Below are positions 13,187 to 25,314 of a stretch of DNA of 64,000 nt, piece by piece. The notes beneath the pieces are model-generated. The model had not been told where the DNA came from, made no database searches, and worked only from the letters and a program-made list of their open reading frames with translations. The translations under genes and the position numbers were made by a program. The stretch's first letter is position 1; the number at the start of each line of letters is the position of its first letter. The stretch is from Asterionella formosa (taxonomy: Eukaryota), in the NCBI GenBank assembly GCA_002256025.1, contig NKIB01012514.1:1-64000 (forward strand), read 5' to 3'.

Positions 13187-14033
13187 TCTCAAGAAAATAT
13201 AGTGTAAAATAAAATGAAGAAAGACGAACAAGGAAATTTATGTAGATTGTGATGGTGATATCAACCAAGCTGTTACTCACCACAGTACCTGGTACCTGGT
13301 ACCTGGTACCGGTAACTGAGGCTAGTAGTCCCTTGGACCAGGTACTCTGAACAGTACATACCAGTAGTCTACATCATAAAATTCATTTCTTATCGAGGAA
13401 TTTACCGGTACACCGGTATACTGTCTGTGAGCAAACGAAGGTGTAGTACGCACGGCAGGTCGGAGGAGCTCCCACGGACCAAGAAATCCCGCTAGTGGTT
13501 GGTCGAAGGGGGAGAGTTGTGGAAAAGACGGTTTTTACAAAGCAAAAGGGAAACGCAGCTAAATTTCTCATTTAACGCAACTTGCCCTATGTGTACAGTA
13601 GACAAGCAGTAATAGGTGGGTACTCCTGGCTGTGGACAGCATTCAATGAATGAAAAGGTTCTGAGCCATGTAGCTTGCGCACTTACGACGTCCTACTACG
13701 GTCGGTATTCCTGAGTCCCTGATACCCCTGGTTTCACGTGTTAGTTTACCGGTAGGATAACATCATCTGCAATGTTATGTATATAATTTCGGTATATATA
13801 ACAAATAGGATGACATTGATATGATACCCCTGATATCAGGGTGTACTCAGCCGGTACGTATAGGGTGTGTTCATAAGTCGGTATAATAAAAAGGCAGTAT
13901 TATGGTAGGCTTGCAACGATTGCTTCGTGTCGTACTCCATCAACAACACATTCTATCATCATTGTGTTTGCTTTCCTTCATTCCTGTAATCGTGTCCTGT
14001 ATTTGAAACTAGCCATAGATCAACACCATCATC

Positions 14034-15926
14034 ATGATGCAACGACAGCAGCAGCAGGACGAGGACGAATCGTCGTCGCTGTTGTTTCTGAATCGCAAGC
14101 TAACCATTGACGAAGTGTCCGCACTTCGGAGCCTTTTGCAAACAGAACTCCCTTCCCTTGTGGAAGATGCAGAAGACATTACGGACTTGCTAGATTATAC
14201 CTTTGCCATGATTTCCAATAGCAAATCTGTCCCATATATGGAAGGCGAACTGAAAGAATTGTGTTCAGAAGATGCTGCCAAGCGCATCGGAGAGATTCTC
14301 TTGAGCTACTTTCGTACCATTGAATCTGTCGCCAGTACCACCGGGACTTCTGATACTACTAATGACACTGCTACTGCTGCCACAACTACAACTTCTTCCT
14401 CTACTACCTCTACTAAGTTACCTCTTAAAAAAACCATCAAGGCGTCTGGTGAGGCATTGGGAAATGCACTAACGACATCTGGTGCTTTGGGGTCTTCGAG
14501 GATTGGAAAGGGCAACAAACTCAACAACAACAATACCAAGCCAGAAGTCAACAAGGTCAACTCCAATACTCTTACTTCTACTACTACTGCTATTACTACC
14601 AGTAGTAGTAGTAACAATAGCAGTAAGCAAAAAAGAAAGGAACCATTGTCATTGGACAAAGAGCACACAAATACCGTTACCTCAACTAGTACTACGTTTA
14701 CTGCGCAAAAATCAATGACAGGACGTGGTGGAGAACGCAAACGAGACAACAACAATTTAAGAGGAGGTAAAGGTGGAAATGAAAGAGGCACTTCAAATAG
14801 AGGAGGTCGGGCTGATTTTGACAAGCGGGCTGGACGTTCTGTTACTACTACTTCCACTACTACTACTCCTGGGAGAACAGGGTTAGCTATGGAACGATTG
14901 ACAGATCCAGAAACGAGGCAACGACGTGAAGGAAATCGTGGAGGAGATGGAAGAGGTCGGGGGACAGGAAGGGGCCACGATGATGACCGCAGAGCCAGAG
15001 GAATCAACCAAAGGGGTGGAGGGAGAGATGATGCCATGGGACGTGGACGGATTTCAGGTCATCGGCGTGTGAGAAATGACATGGATGAAGAAGATTTCAT
15101 TCAAGCTCCTCGTCCTCCTGCTGCTCGTGGCGGAGGACGGGAGGGGAGATCCTTCCATGATGGAAGAGGGAGAATGCTTGGTGACGCAAGAGGAGGGCGA
15201 GGAGCAAATCGTGATGCAGGAGGGAGGTTTGGTAGAGGAGATCGTCCTCCTGTTCCTCCGGAAAACAAACGCCAGCGCATAGAAGGAGAGAGAGAATGGA
15301 ATGAAGGTCATGGAGGTTGGCAAGATGGAGGAGGTTATGAGGAGTCATACATGACTCATGGAGGTTACGGTGGAGGCTACGATGAAGGATACGGTGTTTA
15401 CGACGATGGATATGGTGGTTATGGAGGATACCATGATGGATATGGGTACGGAGGCTATAACGATGGATGGTATGGTGGTCAAGGACGTGGTCGTGGTCGT
15501 GCTGGACGATTCGGACGAGGCCGTACCGATGGTCGCATGGGACGTGGCGGCGGTCGCTTTGGTCGTGGAGGAAATGCGGATGATGCTGCTCCTGTTGATG
15601 CTGGTGCTACTTCCGAGCAGCTACATGCTACTATTGAAGGAGTTCCTGGATCTGGAGCAGACGGTCACGAAGGCAACCATGGAGCAGCTTTCGAGAATGG
15701 GACATTGGCTGGCGCAGCTGCTGGTCACCCATCTCCCATGGTCGCTGCTGCTTTTGGTGGACGAGGACGAGGAGGTAGATTTTCTGGCCGTGGTGGTCGC
15801 GGGGGATACAGGGCGCAAGTTCACACAATGATTGCATCCAAGTCGTGGGTTCGACCAAAGCCTGACAAGGATGGGGCAGGTGGCGAAGGTTCTGGAGCTG
15901 GAGGACTACCAGCTGCCGAAGGTTAA
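14034..15926 (+). CDS. RGG/YGG-rich putative RNA-binding protein with small N-terminal helical (PWI-like) domain
   Basis: 630-aa ORF with an N-terminal helical segment (DLLDYTFAMISNSKSVPYMEGELKEL...IGEIL), a Thr/Ser linker, many RGG/GRG boxes and a YGGYD-rich block. Confidence 0.75.
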   Translation: MMQRQQQQDEDESSSLLFLNRKLTIDEVSALRSLLQTELPSLVEDAEDITDLLDYTFAMISNSKSVPYMEGELKELCSEDAAKRIGEILLSYFRTIESVASTTGTSDTTNDTATAATTTTSSSTTSTKLPLKKTIKASGEALGNALTTSGALGSSRIGKGNKLNNNNTKPEVNKVNSNTLTSTTTAITTSSSSNNSSKQKRKEPLSLDKEHTNTVTSTSTTFTAQKSMTGRGGERKRDNNNLRGGKGGNERGTSNRGGRADFDKRAGRSVTTTSTTTTPGRTGLAMERLTDPETRQRREGNRGGDGRGRGTGRGHDDDRRARGINQRGGGRDDAMGRGRISGHRRVRNDMDEEDFIQAPRPPAARGGGREGRSFHDGRGRMLGDARGGRGANRDAGGRFGRGDRPPVPPENKRQRIEGEREWNEGHGGWQDGGGYEESYMTHGGYGGGYDEGYGVYDDGYGGYGGYHDGYGYGGYNDGWYGGQGRGRGRAGRFGRGRTDGRMGRGGGRFGRGGNADDAAPVDAGATSEQLHATIEGVPGSGADGHEGNHGAAFENGTLAGAAAGHPSPMVAAAFGGRGRGGRFSGRGGRGGYRAQVHTMIASKSWVRPKPDKDGAGGEGSGAGGLPAAEG

Positions 15927-16656: not shown

Positions 16657-17943
16657 TTATTCAGCCTGAATATCCTTAATTCCATGGACAACTATTGGCA
16701 ACAATAGAGGAACAATTTCTTGAACTCCTTTTGGATTTCCTGGTAGATTGACAATCATTGTTTTATCCCGAATGCCTGCCACTCCACGTGACAATGATGA
16801 CAATGGTTGAGTCCGACTGCATTCTGTTGTAATGAAAGACAATAGGCCAGGCAATGGTCGGTCCACAATACTGGCTGTTGCTTCTGGTGTTACGTCCCGT
16901 TTGGAGAATCCTGTTCCACCTGTTGTTAACACAAGATGTATACCTTGATTGGCATAGTCCATCAACTTGGTTTGAATAGCATCCATAGTGTCAGGAACAA
17001 TTGTTCGATCCACGATTGTACAACAAACTCGTATAGTAGCACTAGCAGTCATGACTGCTTCTTCTGCGGCTGGACCAGATAAATCTCCAGTTTCATATTG
17101 ATTAGTAAAGGCTCGATCACTAATGGTAAGAATGGCACAAGTAAAGTTAACTCCACCTTTTGGTGGTGGCGGAGGTGAGAAGGGTGGAAGGGTTCGAGTG
17201 GATCTTGTTGTAGATAAAGTGGCAGTAGTGGTACTACTAGGTGCGATACCAAAAGTAGGAGCAGAAACTGAAACGTCGTCTACATCTTGACAACAAACAT
17301 TTGAAAGGAGCGATGATGAAGGTGGTTGGCTGGGGCAGGTTGTTTCTGCTGAAGTAGCAGATGTAGTAGGAGCAGAAGTAGAAGAAGTAGTAGCACTAGT
17401 AGCAGTCATGTTGGTGCGTTTCATCAAAATGGCATCATCATGAAGCGCATGCAAAGGTTTGCTCAACTCATATCGCTCCATTTGTTCCTTGGATGCCTTG
17501 CTGGAGTGAGCTATCTTCCAATCTGCATAGTTGCATCCGTACACATATTGCGCAGCTTCATCATAGCCCATGGCATCAAGGCTTTGTAGTATGTTGTTGT
17601 GGTTGTTCCTGTCAACGACATCCAGAGCAGTACTATTGGTTTGCAGTTGCACTGATAATCGCCTGGCTTCAAGGACCATCCACTGCAATGACACAAGCTG
17701 TAAGTCTCATTTAGTAGCACAACACTTACTACTTATAGTACTTCTTTGTCTCACCTTGGCAAGACAATTTCTACAAAATCCCGATACCGTCATGAGGTCA
17801 ATATTTGGAACAGAATCAGAACGTTCGTTCAAATGTGCACACAACGATCGAAACGCAGCAGCCTCTAATTGCTGTGTCACGGATGGTGGCAAGTGTTCGT
17901 CGACATAGTGGCTGCTGAGGCTGGGGCTGCTGGGGCTGGTCAT
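16657..17943 (-). CDS. DUF1244-MogA/Cnx1G (molybdopterin adenylyltransferase) fusion protein; exons 17755-17943 and 16657-17682, 404 aa
   Basis: Exon 1 encodes LEAAAFRSLCAHLNERSDSVPNIDLMTVSGFCRNCLAK. A 72-nt phase-0 GTGAG...TTGCAG intron (17683-17754) joins it to WMVLEARR...YVYGCNYADWK, completing DUF1244. The C-terminal domain has ILTISDR, DLSGP, LTTGGTGFSKRDVTPEAT, SRGVAGIR and NLPGNP (MogA/MoaB family). Confidence 0.85.
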
Positions 17944-20059
17944 GATGCTATAAAACCACTTGCTGATGGTATGATTGAACAGCAGTGGAGTGTTGCTTTG
18001 GACGGCGATTTCTTTTTGTTTTGCATGGAGGCGATGAGAACACATAATTAACAAGCGTAAGTCCGTACCATCACCTATAATAGTGTGTATGTACATCTCA
18101 TATCGACAGGATCAAGCATCATGTTTCCCTAACCCTAATAATGCAGATGGCGAGAGGAGGAGCAATGCGAGCAATTATGCATAATAGACTGGAGTACATT
18201 TGATACAATAAATTATGAAATTGTCATCAGCATTCAAAGGTTGCTTGCATGTGTGGTGGACTGGTGGGGAGTTGTGGTAAAGACGCACTTTGGGGAAAAC
18301 ATAGCTTAATTTCCTGTTTACCACAACTTGCTTGCTCTGGTCACTGTGCATATTCGGATCATGGGGTTCCAGAGTAATATGTGTTTGTCATTCATAGGAC
18401 ATGCTCATTTCTAGTATATCAACAGATCCCCTGCCAGTATTATCAAGGGTATAGACCATGGAATGGGTCAAGGGTGTGAGGGTGGAATTATCAACAGAGC
18501 CAAAGTCATACTAGTATTTACCATGAAGAAACAAGGTTGAAACAAAAGTGGAGAAAGGAAGAGACATCATGTTGCTGTTGGTGGTGGTTGTAATGGAGAT
18601 TGCAGAAACCGGAGTGCTAGTAATAGCTAGCAGGAGTCCTTTTCATAGCAGGTGTGCAGCCTCTATGAGTCTGTGATATCAAAACAAAGCTGAAAGCGGT
18701 GTTGGTTGCAGTATAAGTATGCATCATTGGCATTGGAAGTAGCAGTCGTAATGATGTCATCAGATGAACAAAGGCCATGATTGGTGCAATGGCTGGCTGT
18801 GGACATGGAAGGACCAAATCAGAACTGATTGCTGTGAGGACTCTGGGTTTCTCTTCTTGTGACTGCTGAACAAGCTGGGAGTAACAATAGCAGCTTCCTG
18901 GTGAGGCGTGATTGCATCTTTTGCAAAGTGTTTGTGGGTTGGAGTCAGTGACATCATTTGAGATGGAATCAAGTCAGATTATATTGTGTCTGACAAACAG
19001 TCTACTAAATCTCATGAGGAAATTGAACACACAAAGTATTTGTGGGATGGAGTCAGTGACATTATCATTGGAATGGAATAGAGGCAAACGAACAAGAAAA
19101 AGTGGTAGAGTTCCGCTTAGCAAAGTATTTGAAACTAAAATTTTTGTGTAGAATAACTGTTGCTGTCCTGGCACCTATCATACCTATAGAAAATTTACAT
19201 CTTGGAGTACATCTTATTGTAGTCTCTGCTACTGTCACAGGTATGAATACCAGGAGTGTACATCATACATACAAATAAGAAAATATACTCCTACTTTATA
19301 AATACCCTTGATTGTATACCGGTTATGGTAAGCAAGAGGAGAGTATGCTTCGAAATGGAATGTGGCATCTGAATTGGTGATTCTCTCCCACAATAGCTAT
19401 AGTGAAATTATTGTAAAGTGGTACTCCCCCTGTCTAATAACAGTTGCATCGATAATTCAAATTTATCCAGGGCCATTTTGACTCCTAGGATTTTCTCCGG
19501 CTCAATAGCCCCACGGTGCAGCTTGCTCTAAGCTACGGATCCATGTATATATTATATACAGAAAGATTAAAATTGGCAATTACATTTGAAAAAAACGGTT
19601 TTCGGCTTTTTCGACTTCCACTTTTGCTCATCTCAAGCGAAATGCAGATGCCTGACCCCCCTTTTTTCTTGCCATCACCTCTTCTCAACAAGCACATGAG
19701 AAAGCATCTAACACCAGAAGAACTTCAAATTGTGTGGGATTATGGTTAACGGAACCTCCAAAAAGGACCTGATGGAGGGGACGAAATAGATGGTCACCCC
19801 CATTTTAGTGCATGGAACAGTTAAATTTTTGGTACATTAGCAGCTGCTCCTCTTGCCCTTCCCAAGTCAACAGTTTTTGGATTGTTACAAAGAATGACAG
19901 AGAGAATGTAATACCAAGTTCAGTCTAGCCGATGCTTTCGGAGGAGGGTAAGATAAGTTGTTTTATGTAATGTGTTAATCATTTACAATTGAACCATCCA
20001 GATCAAGAACATCCTTCCCCTGATGTTGATTTTGATCCAGGACTGTTTGGTTATTATGA

Positions 20060-20850
20060 TGGCTTTTATGACCAGGTCCATATAGATGAAAAGTGGTTCT
20101 TTTTTTTTCAGAAGGAAAAATGAAAATATATCTGGCTCATGGAGAAGAGGCGGCTCCCACAAGACGGACGAAACATAACAAGGAACATATCGAAAAGGTA
20201 ATGTTCCTTTCTGCTGCTGTGACACGTCCGCGTTTTGACGACGAAAAAGTGTGTACATTTGATGGTGAAATTGGAATTTGGCCATTCGTGCACCAACTAG
20301 CAGCGCAAAGAAGTTCAATTTATCGACCAGCAGGGACAATGGAAACAAAGTCACTCCCAGTGACAAAACAGCAGTCATATGCTAACATGATTGTTGATAA
20401 TGTTTTACCTATGATCAAAGCCAAGTGGCCTGATATAAAAACGAATATACTATCTACAGCACGAAAAAGCTTCAACACATTTTGGTTCCGATTTTGCTCC
20501 CTTTGTAGGAGCTGCTGCAACAGATAAAGAATGGGATATTCGATTGACTAAGCAACCAGCGAACAGTCCGGATTTTAATATCAACGATCTATTTTTTTAA
20601 GGACATTACAGTCAGGTCAATGGGACTCCGTGGAAGAAGCCCACAACGACGTCGACGGTTTGATAGAGGCAGTGCAGGCAGCATTCGGTTTTACCAACCA
20701 AATTAAATTGTTTTTTCTTAACATTACAGGGTTGCTTGGAAGAGATTATTTTTGTTAATGGCGACAACAATCATCATATACCTCAAATTGGGAAGGCGGC
20801 TCTGGAACGTGCGGGAATTTTACCTGATAGGTTAGCAGATGGGGAGTGAA
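20060..20850 (+). pseudogene. Frameshifted mariner transposase
   Basis: FYDQVHIDEKWFF, KVMFLSAAVTRPRF...FDGEIGIWPFV, RSS..RPAGTMETK and QPANSPDFNINDL are spread over different frames. Limits are approximate. Confidence 0.85.
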
Positions 20851-22143: not shown

Positions 22144-25100
22144 ATGAAAGCAACAGTAAAACTAAGTTGTCCTTCCTTTGTCAGACTTTGGAGTTGCGCA
22201 TTGTCCTTTTCGTCTGCGTTTGTTCCCGCCGTCCGACGTGATTGCCTTCGACACTACAGCTATAAAATGTCTGAAGATCCTTTTGGAGATGATTCCTTCT
22301 TTGCCGAAATTGACTTGGATGCTGTCATACTTGCCAATCAAAGGCAAAGGCAAAGAAGTGGCACTACTGCGAGCAACTATTCCGCAAAGAAGCAAAAGAC
22401 TTTATTTGGGGCCAACTACAAGGGACCAGATATCACAATGGGACAAAAGACGGATCCTTCCAACATGACTTTTGCGTATCACGAGCTTCCTGTTGCCTTG
22501 AGAGAATCTACGAATACCACTAGTGCTCAGTTTGTTGGTACGCCTACTGCTACTCTTGCCACTACCACCACCACTACCACTACCATGAAGAACACACCAA
22601 AACAACAACCAAGTTCATCCAATCACTCACTACCCATTCACTCACAGCCAGCTCCTTCAGCACTGGAAGAAACACTATTACAATACTTTGGTCACGACAA
22701 GTTCCGGTCGGGACAACTCGATGTCATTACTGCTGTCCTTGGAGGACGAGATGCAGCTGTCTTTTGGGCAACTGGGAGTGGAAAGAGCATGTGCTATCAA
22801 ATACCAGCCCTGCATAGCAAAGGAGTTGCTATCGTTATATCGCCCCTCATTTCCCTCATGCAAGATCAAGTACACAAGCTTAATGGATTGTCCGATGCAC
22901 CGCTGGCCACCTTTTTAGGATCCGGACAAATGGATCCACATGCTGAGAGTGGGGCCTTGAATGGGGATTACCAACTTGTCTACGTTACTCCTGAAAAATT
23001 ATTGTCTGGGGGATTTTTAGAGGCACTTGCTCACATGCACCAGAAGAAAAGGACCATTTCACTCATGGCCGTCGATGAAGCACATTGCGTATCCGAATGG
23101 GGACATGATTTTCGTACTGATTTTAGGAATCTGCACTTGATTCGATCGCACCCTGTATTGAAGCATGTGCCAATCTTGGCGCTGACAGCCACTGCCGTGC
23201 CTCGGGTTCAAATCGATATTTTGTCAAGCTTGAGACTACAGAATCCCTACATTGCCAGGCAAACCTTTGATCGGACCAATTTGGAAATTTCTGTTGTGAA
23301 GAAGCATCGAGGTGGAATTGGAGCGACTTTGGAAACTGTACTCCCAAAACTCAAAGACAATAAATCTACCATTATCTACGCCGCCACGAAAAATGAAGTG
23401 GAAGACATTGCTGCCTACTTGGACTCCAAGGGTGTCTCAGTTCAACCATACCACGCCGGATTGACGACAAAACTACGGACAGATGCACATACTAATTTCC
23501 TGATTGGAAAAACGGATGTATTGGTTGGAACAGTCGCTTTTGGTATGGGCATTGACAAGCCTGACACTAGGCGAGTCATACACTACGGTCCACCAAAGAC
23601 AATGGAAGAATATTACCAACAAATTGGTAGAGCCGGTCGAGATGGTCTCGCAAGTGAAGTGTGCATGTTTGTTAATGACAATGACTTTGACAAGTATTAT
23701 GGTGACTTTTATATGGGATCGCTGCCCGCAGAAGCCAAGCAAGCCATGGAAGGATCTTTGAGTGCACTGAAAACATACGCATTGGATCCACAAACTTGTC
23801 GACGAAAAGCTGTCTTGGATTTCTTTGAAGAGAAGCCGAGCTTTGGAGAGCGCTGTGGAACGTGCGATACTTGTCGAAATGTAAAGAAATATGGAAGTGA
23901 GATGGAAAGGGACTTGGGAAAGATGGGCGCTCGAGTTGTTTTGAAAGCAGTTGAGTCTCTAAGTGAGCAAAGTTTGTCAATTATAGAGAAGGTGATCAAT
24001 GGCAACACTGTGGAGAGCTACCGTTATTCCAAATATGCAAACACTACGGCGGTCAATGACTACATTGTTATGGCTCGCAAAGATATGGGCAAGAGGCGAC
24101 CAATCAGCTACTTCAAGGAGCTTGTATCCCCTCTCGTGAGCGCAGGCTATCTAAGTGAAAGGAGCAAAAAAATCGAAATAAATGGATACAAAAAAGCCTT
24201 CACTGTATTCCTCATTACGCCCAAGGGTCTTGAGGCTTTGCAAAACGAGGAACTTCCAATCATCTTATCCGTCCCTCAGTCACTTCGTGATTTTGAGGAG
24301 GAGGAAGAGAGGGCACGTCAAACAGTTCTTGCCCAACTCGAAAAGTCTGGCATCAAGCTCGAGAAGATTCCCAAGGAAGAAATTGAGAGTGGGGAAGGAA
24401 TCACCATACAGGCGTACTCGAAATGGAATTCGCACATCGAATCCCATCGTAAAAATAACCGCCAATCTCGCATTCAACAATTGGAAGACTTGCTTGGACG
24501 CATTGAGTTGTGGCGACGCAGCACTGCAGAAAAGTTTCGCATGGCGCCTGCAGCTGTCCTAGCCGAGCACATTACATATACAATTGCCTATGCTATCGCT
24601 ACAATGAATGGTAAGGTGGAAAGGGAAGCGCTCGTGGCTGTTGGGGTTCGCAGTCGAGAACTAGACAACCTTCTCCAAGCGTTGCATGAGTGGCAAGATG
24701 AAGTTCAACCACAGAGTCCTTTTCCAGTGAAGATAGCATCTGGCACCACTCAAATGGTCCTCCCCAACATGTTTACCCCAACACGTGCCTGGGAGTATGC
24801 TGTCTATAGACCTAACAAAAAGACTGGGCTCGCTTCCTGGGAGTCCTCCCACAATCGATTTGTGGCAGGCGAGCATCTTCAGACTATTGCCATGTCACCA
24901 GCTGGTGGAAAACCGGTAACTGCGACAACAGTATTTAATCATGTTTTGGAGGGCTTGGTGATGGGCCGTGGGACACCACTGAAACGACTTGCATCTCACT
25001 GGAACCCTCCACCAACCGAAGAAGTTTACAATCGCCTAAAGGAATGTGAATCCTTGAGTGGTATGGATCCCGTTGGGATGCCAGCTACTTCCGGAAAAGA

Positions 25101-25314
25101 TGGTGGAAAATTCCTTTTGACTGATTTCTTGCGTCCCATTATTGGAGATGAGCTCGCCGACAAGCCGTATGAGACAAGAACCTTTGAGGACAAGAAAGAA
25201 ATTAATAAATGGTACAGTGCACTGAATTGGTACCTTGCATTTCGTCGAGCAGGGTATGATCCTTCTTTCGCTCCGCCTGACGAGCAGCTTCCATCAGTAG
25301 GAGCTCAAGTATAA
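22144..25314 (+). CDS. recQ: RecQ-family ATP-dependent DNA helicase (helicase core, Zn-binding/RQC, HRDC-like and C-terminal HTH regions)
   Basis: ATGSGKSMCYQIP, SPLISLMQDQ, DEAHCVSEWGHDFR, ALTATA, YHAGL, AFGMGIDKPD, YYQQIGRAGRDG and CRR...CGTCDTC. A second in-frame ATG lies at 22267. Confidence 0.95.
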   Translation: MKATVKLSCPSFVRLWSCALSFSSAFVPAVRRDCLRHYSYKMSEDPFGDDSFFAEIDLDAVILANQRQRQRSGTTASNYSAKKQKTLFGANYKGPDITMGQKTDPSNMTFAYHELPVALRESTNTTSAQFVGTPTATLATTTTTTTTMKNTPKQQPSSSNHSLPIHSQPAPSALEETLLQYFGHDKFRSGQLDVITAVLGGRDAAVFWATGSGKSMCYQIPALHSKGVAIVISPLISLMQDQVHKLNGLSDAPLATFLGSGQMDPHAESGALNGDYQLVYVTPEKLLSGGFLEALAHMHQKKRTISLMAVDEAHCVSEWGHDFRTDFRNLHLIRSHPVLKHVPILALTATAVPRVQIDILSSLRLQNPYIARQTFDRTNLEISVVKKHRGGIGATLETVLPKLKDNKSTIIYAATKNEVEDIAAYLDSKGVSVQPYHAGLTTKLRTDAHTNFLIGKTDVLVGTVAFGMGIDKPDTRRVIHYGPPKTMEEYYQQIGRAGRDGLASEVCMFVNDNDFDKYYGDFYMGSLPAEAKQAMEGSLSALKTYALDPQTCRRKAVLDFFEEKPSFGERCGTCDTCRNVKKYGSEMERDLGKMGARVVLKAVESLSEQSLSIIEKVINGNTVESYRYSKYANTTAVNDYIVMARKDMGKRRPISYFKELVSPLVSAGYLSERSKKIEINGYKKAFTVFLITPKGLEALQNEELPIILSVPQSLRDFEEEEERARQTVLAQLEKSGIKLEKIPKEEIESGEGITIQAYSKWNSHIESHRKNNRQSRIQQLEDLLGRIELWRRSTAEKFRMAPAAVLAEHITYTIAYAIATMNGKVEREALVAVGVRSRELDNLLQALHEWQDEVQPQSPFPVKIASGTTQMVLPNMFTPTRAWEYAVYRPNKKTGLASWESSHNRFVAGEHLQTIAMSPAGGKPVTATTVFNHVLEGLVMGRGTPLKRLASHWNPPPTEEVYNRLKECESLSGMDPVGMPATSGKDGGKFLLTDFLRPIIGDELADKPYETRTFEDKKEINKWYSALNWYLAFRRAGYDPSFAPPDEQLPSVGAQV

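Follow-up and report, generated by a model that had tools for sequence, protein, structure and literature searches.

The gene described here, in which the domain DUF1244 is fused to a molybdopterin adenylyltransferase (G) domain of the MogA/Cnx1G type, is real, expressed and conserved. It lies on the reverse strand of the 64,000-nucleotide stretch of the Asterionella formosa contig NKIB01012514.1 that we analysed (the window), and its sequence suggests that it probably encodes the diatom's working molybdopterin adenylyltransferase, the enzyme for the opening half of the final step in molybdenum cofactor (Moco) synthesis, carrying a helper domain of its own. The original prediction had linked DUF1244 to Moco, and the link is supported: several eukaryotic lineages have fusions, the domain depends almost wholly on the pathway in two classes of bacteria, and a minority of genomes place it next to Moco genes in an operon. 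As the sampled bacteria almost never keep the domain without the pathway, we consider it likely that DUF1244 is an accessory of Moco synthesis, which occurs by itself in numerous alpha- and gammaproteobacteria and as a fusion with the Mo-insertase in several protist lineages.

The gene had been predicted from two open reading frames joined by a GT-AG intron (Table 1). RNA contigs bore this out in three of four runs (X1, X2 and X4, from 2 studies, depth 102-129), skipping exactly the 72 bases, and a database protein from a 1324-nt contig (P0001, 99% identical) has the same spliced junction as predicted. Run X7, from a relative about 97% alike (23 differences in 944 bases, depth 7.5), retains the intron. 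Many other GT/GC-AG pairs would preserve the frame; the RNA shows only this one. Two in-frame upstream ATGs (18096 and 18045) lie beyond the RNA contigs of X1, X2 and X4, that of X1 starting at 17970, and orthologues begin near 17943; contigs cannot prove the start. After splicing, the protein of 404 aa consists of DUF1244, a linker with LLSNVCCQD and the G domain, and every motif that had been predicted (GFCRNCLAKW, the linker CC, GGTG, DVTPEA, SRG and NLPG) is found in it. Pfam recognises DUF1244 in the N-terminal part on both sides of the intron, each time above the cut-off of 27 (exon 1, profile positions 1-19, 33.1 bits; exon 2, positions 31-66, 29.8 bits), and MoCF_biosynth with 73.6 bits. 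Neither MoeA_N nor MoeA_C matches in Pfam, in agreement with the predicted lack of an E domain. A single DUF1244 locus was found in the host genome (68 Mb, 15,436 contigs).

Table 1. Features of the fusion gene (window positions), the separate E gene and bacterial gene orders
Feature	Position	Strand	Remarks
Start codon ATG	17943	-	Opens the 63-codon exon 1
Exon 1, codons 1-63	17755..17943	-	First half of DUF1244, ending in GFCRNCLAK
CxxC of DUF1244 (CRNC, Cys57 and Cys60)	17764..17775	-	
Intron, 72 nt, phase 0, GT-AG	17683..17754	-	Within DUF1244; contains an in-frame stop
Exon 2, codons 64-404 and stop at 16657	16657..17682	-	
DUF1244 second half, about residues 64-146	17434..17682	-	Diatom-type insertion precedes YGxxYxxW
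LLSNVCCQD motif, residues 188-196	17284..17310	-	Within low-confidence Ser/Thr/Pro linker
G domain (MogA/Cnx1G-like molybdopterin adenylyltransferase), residues 240-404	16660..17154	-	
MoeA/Cnx1E frame L004, 655 codons	L004:874-2829	+	G000:C13278
Locus L103			DUF1244-moeB-moaA-moaD-moaE
Loci L104, L129, L130			DUF1244-moeB, opposite mobA-mobB
Locus L133			mobA-mobB-moeA-DUF1244

The fusion is shared by a large set of proteins whose named members are diatoms. Both Pfam families occur together in 119 of the best 120 of 2816 matches. All 120 also carry S/T-x-VCC in a linker of variable length that the predicted model shows as disordered (pLDDT <50), so that the linker CC noted in the original prediction is a conserved motif and not an incidental one. 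The CxxC is visible in only 55 of these 120 proteins, the rest mostly starting at the second exon, which we attribute to gene calls ignoring the intron; 15 of 25 short matches are indeed gene calls that run into unrelated sequence at the intron junction.

Other arrangements exist as well. Several centric-diatom proteins have two DUF1244 copies, with tandem pairs in Thalassiosirales, and a search of longer proteins revealed the order E-DUF-DUF-G in Cymbomonas tetramitiformis, Polykrikos kofoidii and Gymnodinium smaydae, and DUF-G-DUF-E in Artemidia motanka, a diplonemid. HSDVC or SSACC precedes the G domain in the Cymbomonas, dinoflagellate and Artemidia fusions, and P0350 has a CC-type motif behind each DUF1244 copy, while P0351 and P0352 have none. 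The trees of both domains place diatoms, Cymbomonas and Artemidia together and dinoflagellates apart; since the AU test keeps a single clade (p 0.46), we do not claim independent fusions. We found no description of the DUF1244-G fusion in print on diatom Cnx1 or Mo-insertase evolution, where subscription journals, figures and some supplements could differ. The G domains of three algae, Micromonas, Diacronema and Chrysochromulina, are reported to have unexplained N-terminal extensions of ca. 150 residues (PMC13262936); DUF1244 is not mentioned in the text portions and 12 of 21 supplements available for that paper, nor in 8 of the 9 supplements of PMC11733289.

The G domain is 40% identical to Arabidopsis Cnx1G, and its model aligns with the Cnx1G fold over 161 residues (Z 25.0, rmsd 2.1). 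Cnx1G was also the best match of the whole-protein model in Foldseek and VIA, searches that are dominated by the G domain and say nothing on the DUF1244 part. The fold and the SD, GGTG, RDxTPE, SR and PG motifs are shared with the G domains of Cnx1 (1uux, 1uuy, 1o8n) and gephyrin and with E. coli MogA. By alignment, Asp294 corresponds to Asp515 and Ser361 to Ser583 of Cnx1 (numbering from the S583A variant 1uuy), and Asp515 of Cnx1 is required for MPT-AMP (PMC9458074). The catalytic Asp (equivalent to MogA Asp49) is kept along with SD, GGTG, DxTPE, SR and PG; in the best 120 of 2816 matches these motifs number 119 (SD), 118 (GGTG), 118 (DxTPEA), 119 (SR) and 120 (PG), and the catalytic columns are retained in 17 of 17 aligned diatom-type G domains. 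TIGR00177 recognises the diatom domain (85.9 bits, cut-off 85.35), while the bacterial MogA equivalog PRK09417 gives 110.5 bits, below its curated cut-off of 158, as expected of a eukaryotic G domain. Proteobacterial MoaB belongs to the same fold family, but TIGR02667 scores only 67.7 bits (cut-off 222.4) and a quick tree groups the diatom domain with Mog, Cnx1 and gephyrin, leaving MoaB as a separate clade. G domains produce MPT-AMP, and molybdate is inserted by E (PMC9370521, PMC9458074, PMC10461460). It is very likely that the diatom G domain forms a putative trimer, predicted to convert MPT into MPT-AMP for the E protein. Unlike in the two-domain Mo-insertases Cnx1 and gephyrin, where G and E share one chain, the diatom G domain is preceded by DUF1244 and the CC-motif linker instead of being joined to E, whose gene is on another contig.

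PF00994 has three loci in the genome, namely the fusion gene, an FAD synthase (PAPS_reduct, MoCF_biosynth, FLAD1_M; L003:142-2343 (+), G000:C4059) and a single MoeA locus, which is the separate E gene that had been predicted. A G-domain query revealed no second copy of that domain in this fragmented assembly. The E protein ends in a tail of 160 aa that is invisible to Pfam and to PDB sequence search and gave no usable match in the ESM Atlas. Results of HHalign showed, for a profile of 37 tails against 44 intact G domains, 97.0% and an E of 8e-11 over 151 columns. The predicted model of the tail (pLDDT 95.6) is nearest to MoaB, Cnx1G and MogA, with TM 0.72 to 1uuy and fold Z of 17.2 and 16.9 (the latter to 1o8n, rmsd 2.7, 153 aligned) vs 11.5 for MoeA. 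The tail is present in 59 of the best 150 MoeA relatives, the carriers with names being Chaetoceros debilis (a complete transcript) and a Bacillariaceae MAG; a further 44 of the 150 have an intact G. GGTG, DxT/APE and PGxP occur in none of the 59 tails and SD in two, while conserved columns persist in the C-terminal half. The tail is therefore a G fold stripped of its catalytic motifs, and no intact G other than that of the fusion gene was found in the genome.

Conservation of the tail implies a non-catalytic role; that the G enzyme docks through it is a guess. Diatom MoeA is said to lack a MogA domain (PMC11733289), a statement that the degenerate G tail refines. The original prediction had taken G to be usually fused to E; this stands as regards Cnx1 and gephyrin, but G and E on separate genes are usual in algae, for example CNX1G and CNX1E of Chlamydomonas (PMC4620153, PMC2944026), and a stand-alone G is thus not unusual there; the degenerate G on E had been missed. 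In contrast to these split algal genes, the diatom E still ends in a G fold that has lost the catalytic motifs; this suggests that a G domain was duplicated and decayed, or was replaced, rather than that the gene simply split. The genome also has three Oxidored_molyb loci (G000:C14270, C5839, C13142), indicating that Moco clients exist.

The diatom DUF1244 belongs with the family PF06844 (SCOP SMc04008-like; 2o35, 3fyb), with 71.7 bits for the spliced P0001, a phmmer E of 1.9e-10 against 2o35, and CRNC and YGxxYxxW in common. It differs from the bacterial form in being fused, in some 25 additional residues that follow the CxxC helix and in the downstream CC motif, which none of 156 bacterial sequences has. 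CRNC is present in 156 of 156 (80 of them found by patterns including or flanking CRNC), His in 96%, and Asn, Met, Trp and Gly are invariant. The predicted model is small and all-helical, with the CxxC at a helix start, and the ESM Atlas with bacterial DUF1244 returned DUF1244 clusters only. We found no function for DUF1244, SMc04008, PF06844 or 2O35 in the literature, where subscription journals might differ. We take PA3440 to be the P. aeruginosa member of the family. It gave a weak Hcp1 pull-down match and no toxicity (PMC8262886).

Considering the invariant cysteines, the CC arm beside G and the retention of the domain even where G and E are fused, we prefer a reading in which DUF1244 is a thiol metal site, built from an interlocked dimer with the invariant CxxC, the near-invariant His and the eukaryotic CC motif. 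Such a site would load, remove or buffer the metal cap (Cu or Zn) of the MPT dithiolene during the passage of MPT or MPT-AMP from G to E. The PDB title of 1uuy/1uux connects copper with Cnx1G-bound MPT. As deduced from sequence, this putative metal or thiol handling of molybdopterin is a serious possibility, though it falls a little short of an even chance. The lack of the CC motif in bacterial DUF1244 and in P0351/P0352 counts against it.

An unlikely alternative, although one with several observations in its favour, is that DUF1244 is a structural adaptor within Moco synthesis, whose obligate dimer would cross-link G trimers or dock G on the E dimer, possibly via mixed trimers with the degenerate G, and so restore G-E channelling, any metal being structural. 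The family is classed in SCOP with the interlocked obligate oligomers (PMC2954204), and the tandem pairs of Thalassiosirales, dinoflagellates and Cymbomonas would give a dimer within one chain. The degenerate G on E, being under selection, with conserved columns in its C-terminal half, fits as well, and the association with MoaB-type and avoidance of MogA-type proteins in bacteria (see below) would suit a partner-specific protein. On the contrary, the domain is also found where G and E already form a single chain and an adaptor would matter least, mere bridging would not require the invariant N-I-D-x-M..F-C-R-N-C-x..W..YG surface, and the eukaryotic partner is Mog-type, not MoaB-type.

Bacterial genomes bear on the reading of DUF1244 as a Moco accessory, common to the thiol metal site and the adaptor. 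In alpha- and gammaproteobacteria together, MoaC is present in 143 of 145 genomes with DUF1244 vs 95 of 206 without. For gammaproteobacteria (200 genomes scored, one more left unscored; dropping the two unpublished ones does not alter the result), DUF1244 is found in 57, and MoaC accompanies it in 55 of these vs 80 of the 143 others (odds ratio 22). ThiC, used as a control and overall as common as MoaC, occurs in 139 of the 200 genomes (47/57 with and 92/143 without DUF1244) and is unlinked to DUF1244 among MoaC-positive ones, while the MoaC link persists inside ThiC-positive (45/47 vs 69/92) and ThiC-negative genomes (10/10 vs 11/51). DUF1244 is present in 88 of 151 alphaproteobacteria, with MoaC in 88/88 vs 15/63, and ThiC was found in 35 of the 80 tested among those 88. 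As genomes are related and the counts ignore kinship, p-values of co-occurrence overstate independence. Of the two exceptions lacking MoaC, G203 has MoaA and MoaB, and G083 has neither MoaA nor MoaC, which we count against the thiol metal site. Every DUF1244-positive genome of 1.1-1.8 Mb retains MoaC.

MoaB presence is the best predictor of bacterial DUF1244. Among MoaC-positive gammaproteobacteria, MoaB-type proteins accompany it in 54/55 genomes (two just below the cut-off counted) vs 37/80 without the domain, and MogA-type proteins in 1/55 vs 29/80; in MoaC-positive alphaproteobacteria, MoaB-type numbers are 86/88 vs 6/15 (seven at 185-218 bits counted). E. coli MoaB is catalytically dead, with Glu for Asp (PMC11656743). 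We rejected the idea that DUF1244 rescues a dead MoaB, as the catalytic Asp is present in 20 of 20 sampled MoaB (13 from genomes with DUF1244, 7 without). The domain is also dispensable, being missing from 80 MoaC-positive gammaproteobacteria and from 13 of 14 control genomes. MoaC-Mog fusions were seen in several MoaC-positive genomes lacking DUF1244 (G029, G139, G217, G242, G314 and others), and in G125 and G277 alongside MoaB and DUF1244.

Gene neighbourhoods gave a mixed picture. A scan of 80 contig loci with 11 synthesis queries found no Moco synthesis gene within 5 kb, and the commonest neighbours were GapR (37), pyruvate kinase (35) and N-formylglutamate amidohydrolase (FGase, 29), with msrP in 4. 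Of the 57 gammaproteobacterial loci 55 were viewed, and at 9 of these a gene of Moco type lies no farther than 4-5 kb away, against a chance of about 2% per locus (a rough estimate). At five of them moeB or moeA is directly adjacent and co-oriented (Table 1); the other four comprise one with mobA and moaB and three with a moeB/thiF-like gene 2-3 kb away. Among 21 alphaproteobacterial loci, a chosen and non-random set, L121 has moeA immediately upstream, and moaB lies no more than 3 kb away at L092 and L123, both of which were selected for that. The absence of Moco genes from all 80 scanned loci and from 46 of the 55 gammaproteobacterial ones, the dispensability of DUF1244, and the fact that most long bacterial forms are FGase fusions count against the thiol metal site.

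These neighbours also bear on a second alternative, that DUF1244 acts outside Moco synthesis, for example in pterin, nucleoid or central metabolism, with co-occurrence reflecting lineage and the eukaryotic fusion being a single ancient accident that spread through protists. The usual neighbours GapR, pyruvate kinase and FGase would be in line with it, as would two Pseudomonas-type loci (L114:4032-6038 and L147) where DUF1244 is preceded by folM/folX-like pterin genes, namely one for a short-chain reductase and one of the FolB family; uncorrected kinship and the compatibility of eukaryotic monophyly with the AU test agree with it too. We nevertheless judge it improbable, given the scarcity of MoaC-negative carriers, the persistence of the MoaC link irrespective of ThiC, the retention of MoaC by small genomes, three distinct Moco operon contexts, and strong conservation of the domain across all fusions. 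Still less probable is a thiol-disulfide redox module keeping the MPT dithiolene or enzyme cysteines reduced with the linker CC as relay, which would fit the invariant CxxC at a helix start, the CC on a flexible arm in 120/120 diatom-type proteins and the reactivity of the dithiolene (PMC9458074), but the fold is all-helical, domain, model and ESM Atlas searches found no thioredoxin-type domain, and the only recurring reductase neighbours are thioredoxin-reductase-like genes, at 5 of 80 loci.

Extending the thiol metal site to its widest form, DUF1244 might be a widespread cysteine-based metal chaperone, guarding molybdopterin after its adenylylation and until Mo is inserted, in the majority of alphaproteobacteria and in many gammaproteobacteria, and diatoms might have a new kind of Mo-insertase, a DUF1244-G enzyme docked on E via a dead G; we propose this combined picture tentatively, as rather less probable than not. 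Moco synthesis is regarded as a closed gene list, which DUF1244, if a component, would extend. Two DUF1244 structures are solved, and the proposed role, if true, bears on protection of the labile dithiolene, on the function of the copper on Cnx1G-bound MPT and on the handover of MPT-AMP from G to E. It can be put to a direct test in bacteria amenable to genetics and in diatoms, which rely on nitrate reductase and for which the corrected picture is a predicted active DUF1244-G together with an E bearing a conserved pseudo-G.

We also made some minor observations. A stretch of 15 kb at L092 (G294, 1.2 Mb genome) holds moaA-moaC-moeA-moaD-moaE, a sulfite dehydrogenase, moaB, DUF1244 and coxG-coxS-coxL. 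An apparent MobA fusion at L104 (335 aa) was rejected, as long frames over DUF1244 in GC-rich genomes are run-on frames, and the long bacterial DUF1244 proteins are mostly fusions or read-throughs with N-formylglutamate amidohydrolase (PF05013). Plasmid records with DUF1244 (20, mostly chromid-sized) showed no Moco genes in the single annotated neighbourhood viewed. In the window, a 635-codon frame at 14019-15926 (+), with a long RGG-rich region and no Pfam match, is convergent with the fusion gene, and a RecQ-type helicase (DEAD, Helicase_C, RecQ_Zn_bind) at 22144-25314 (+) is an unrelated neighbour. A 145-codon frame at 20090-20527 (+) has no Pfam match and presumably recalls a decayed DDE transposase.
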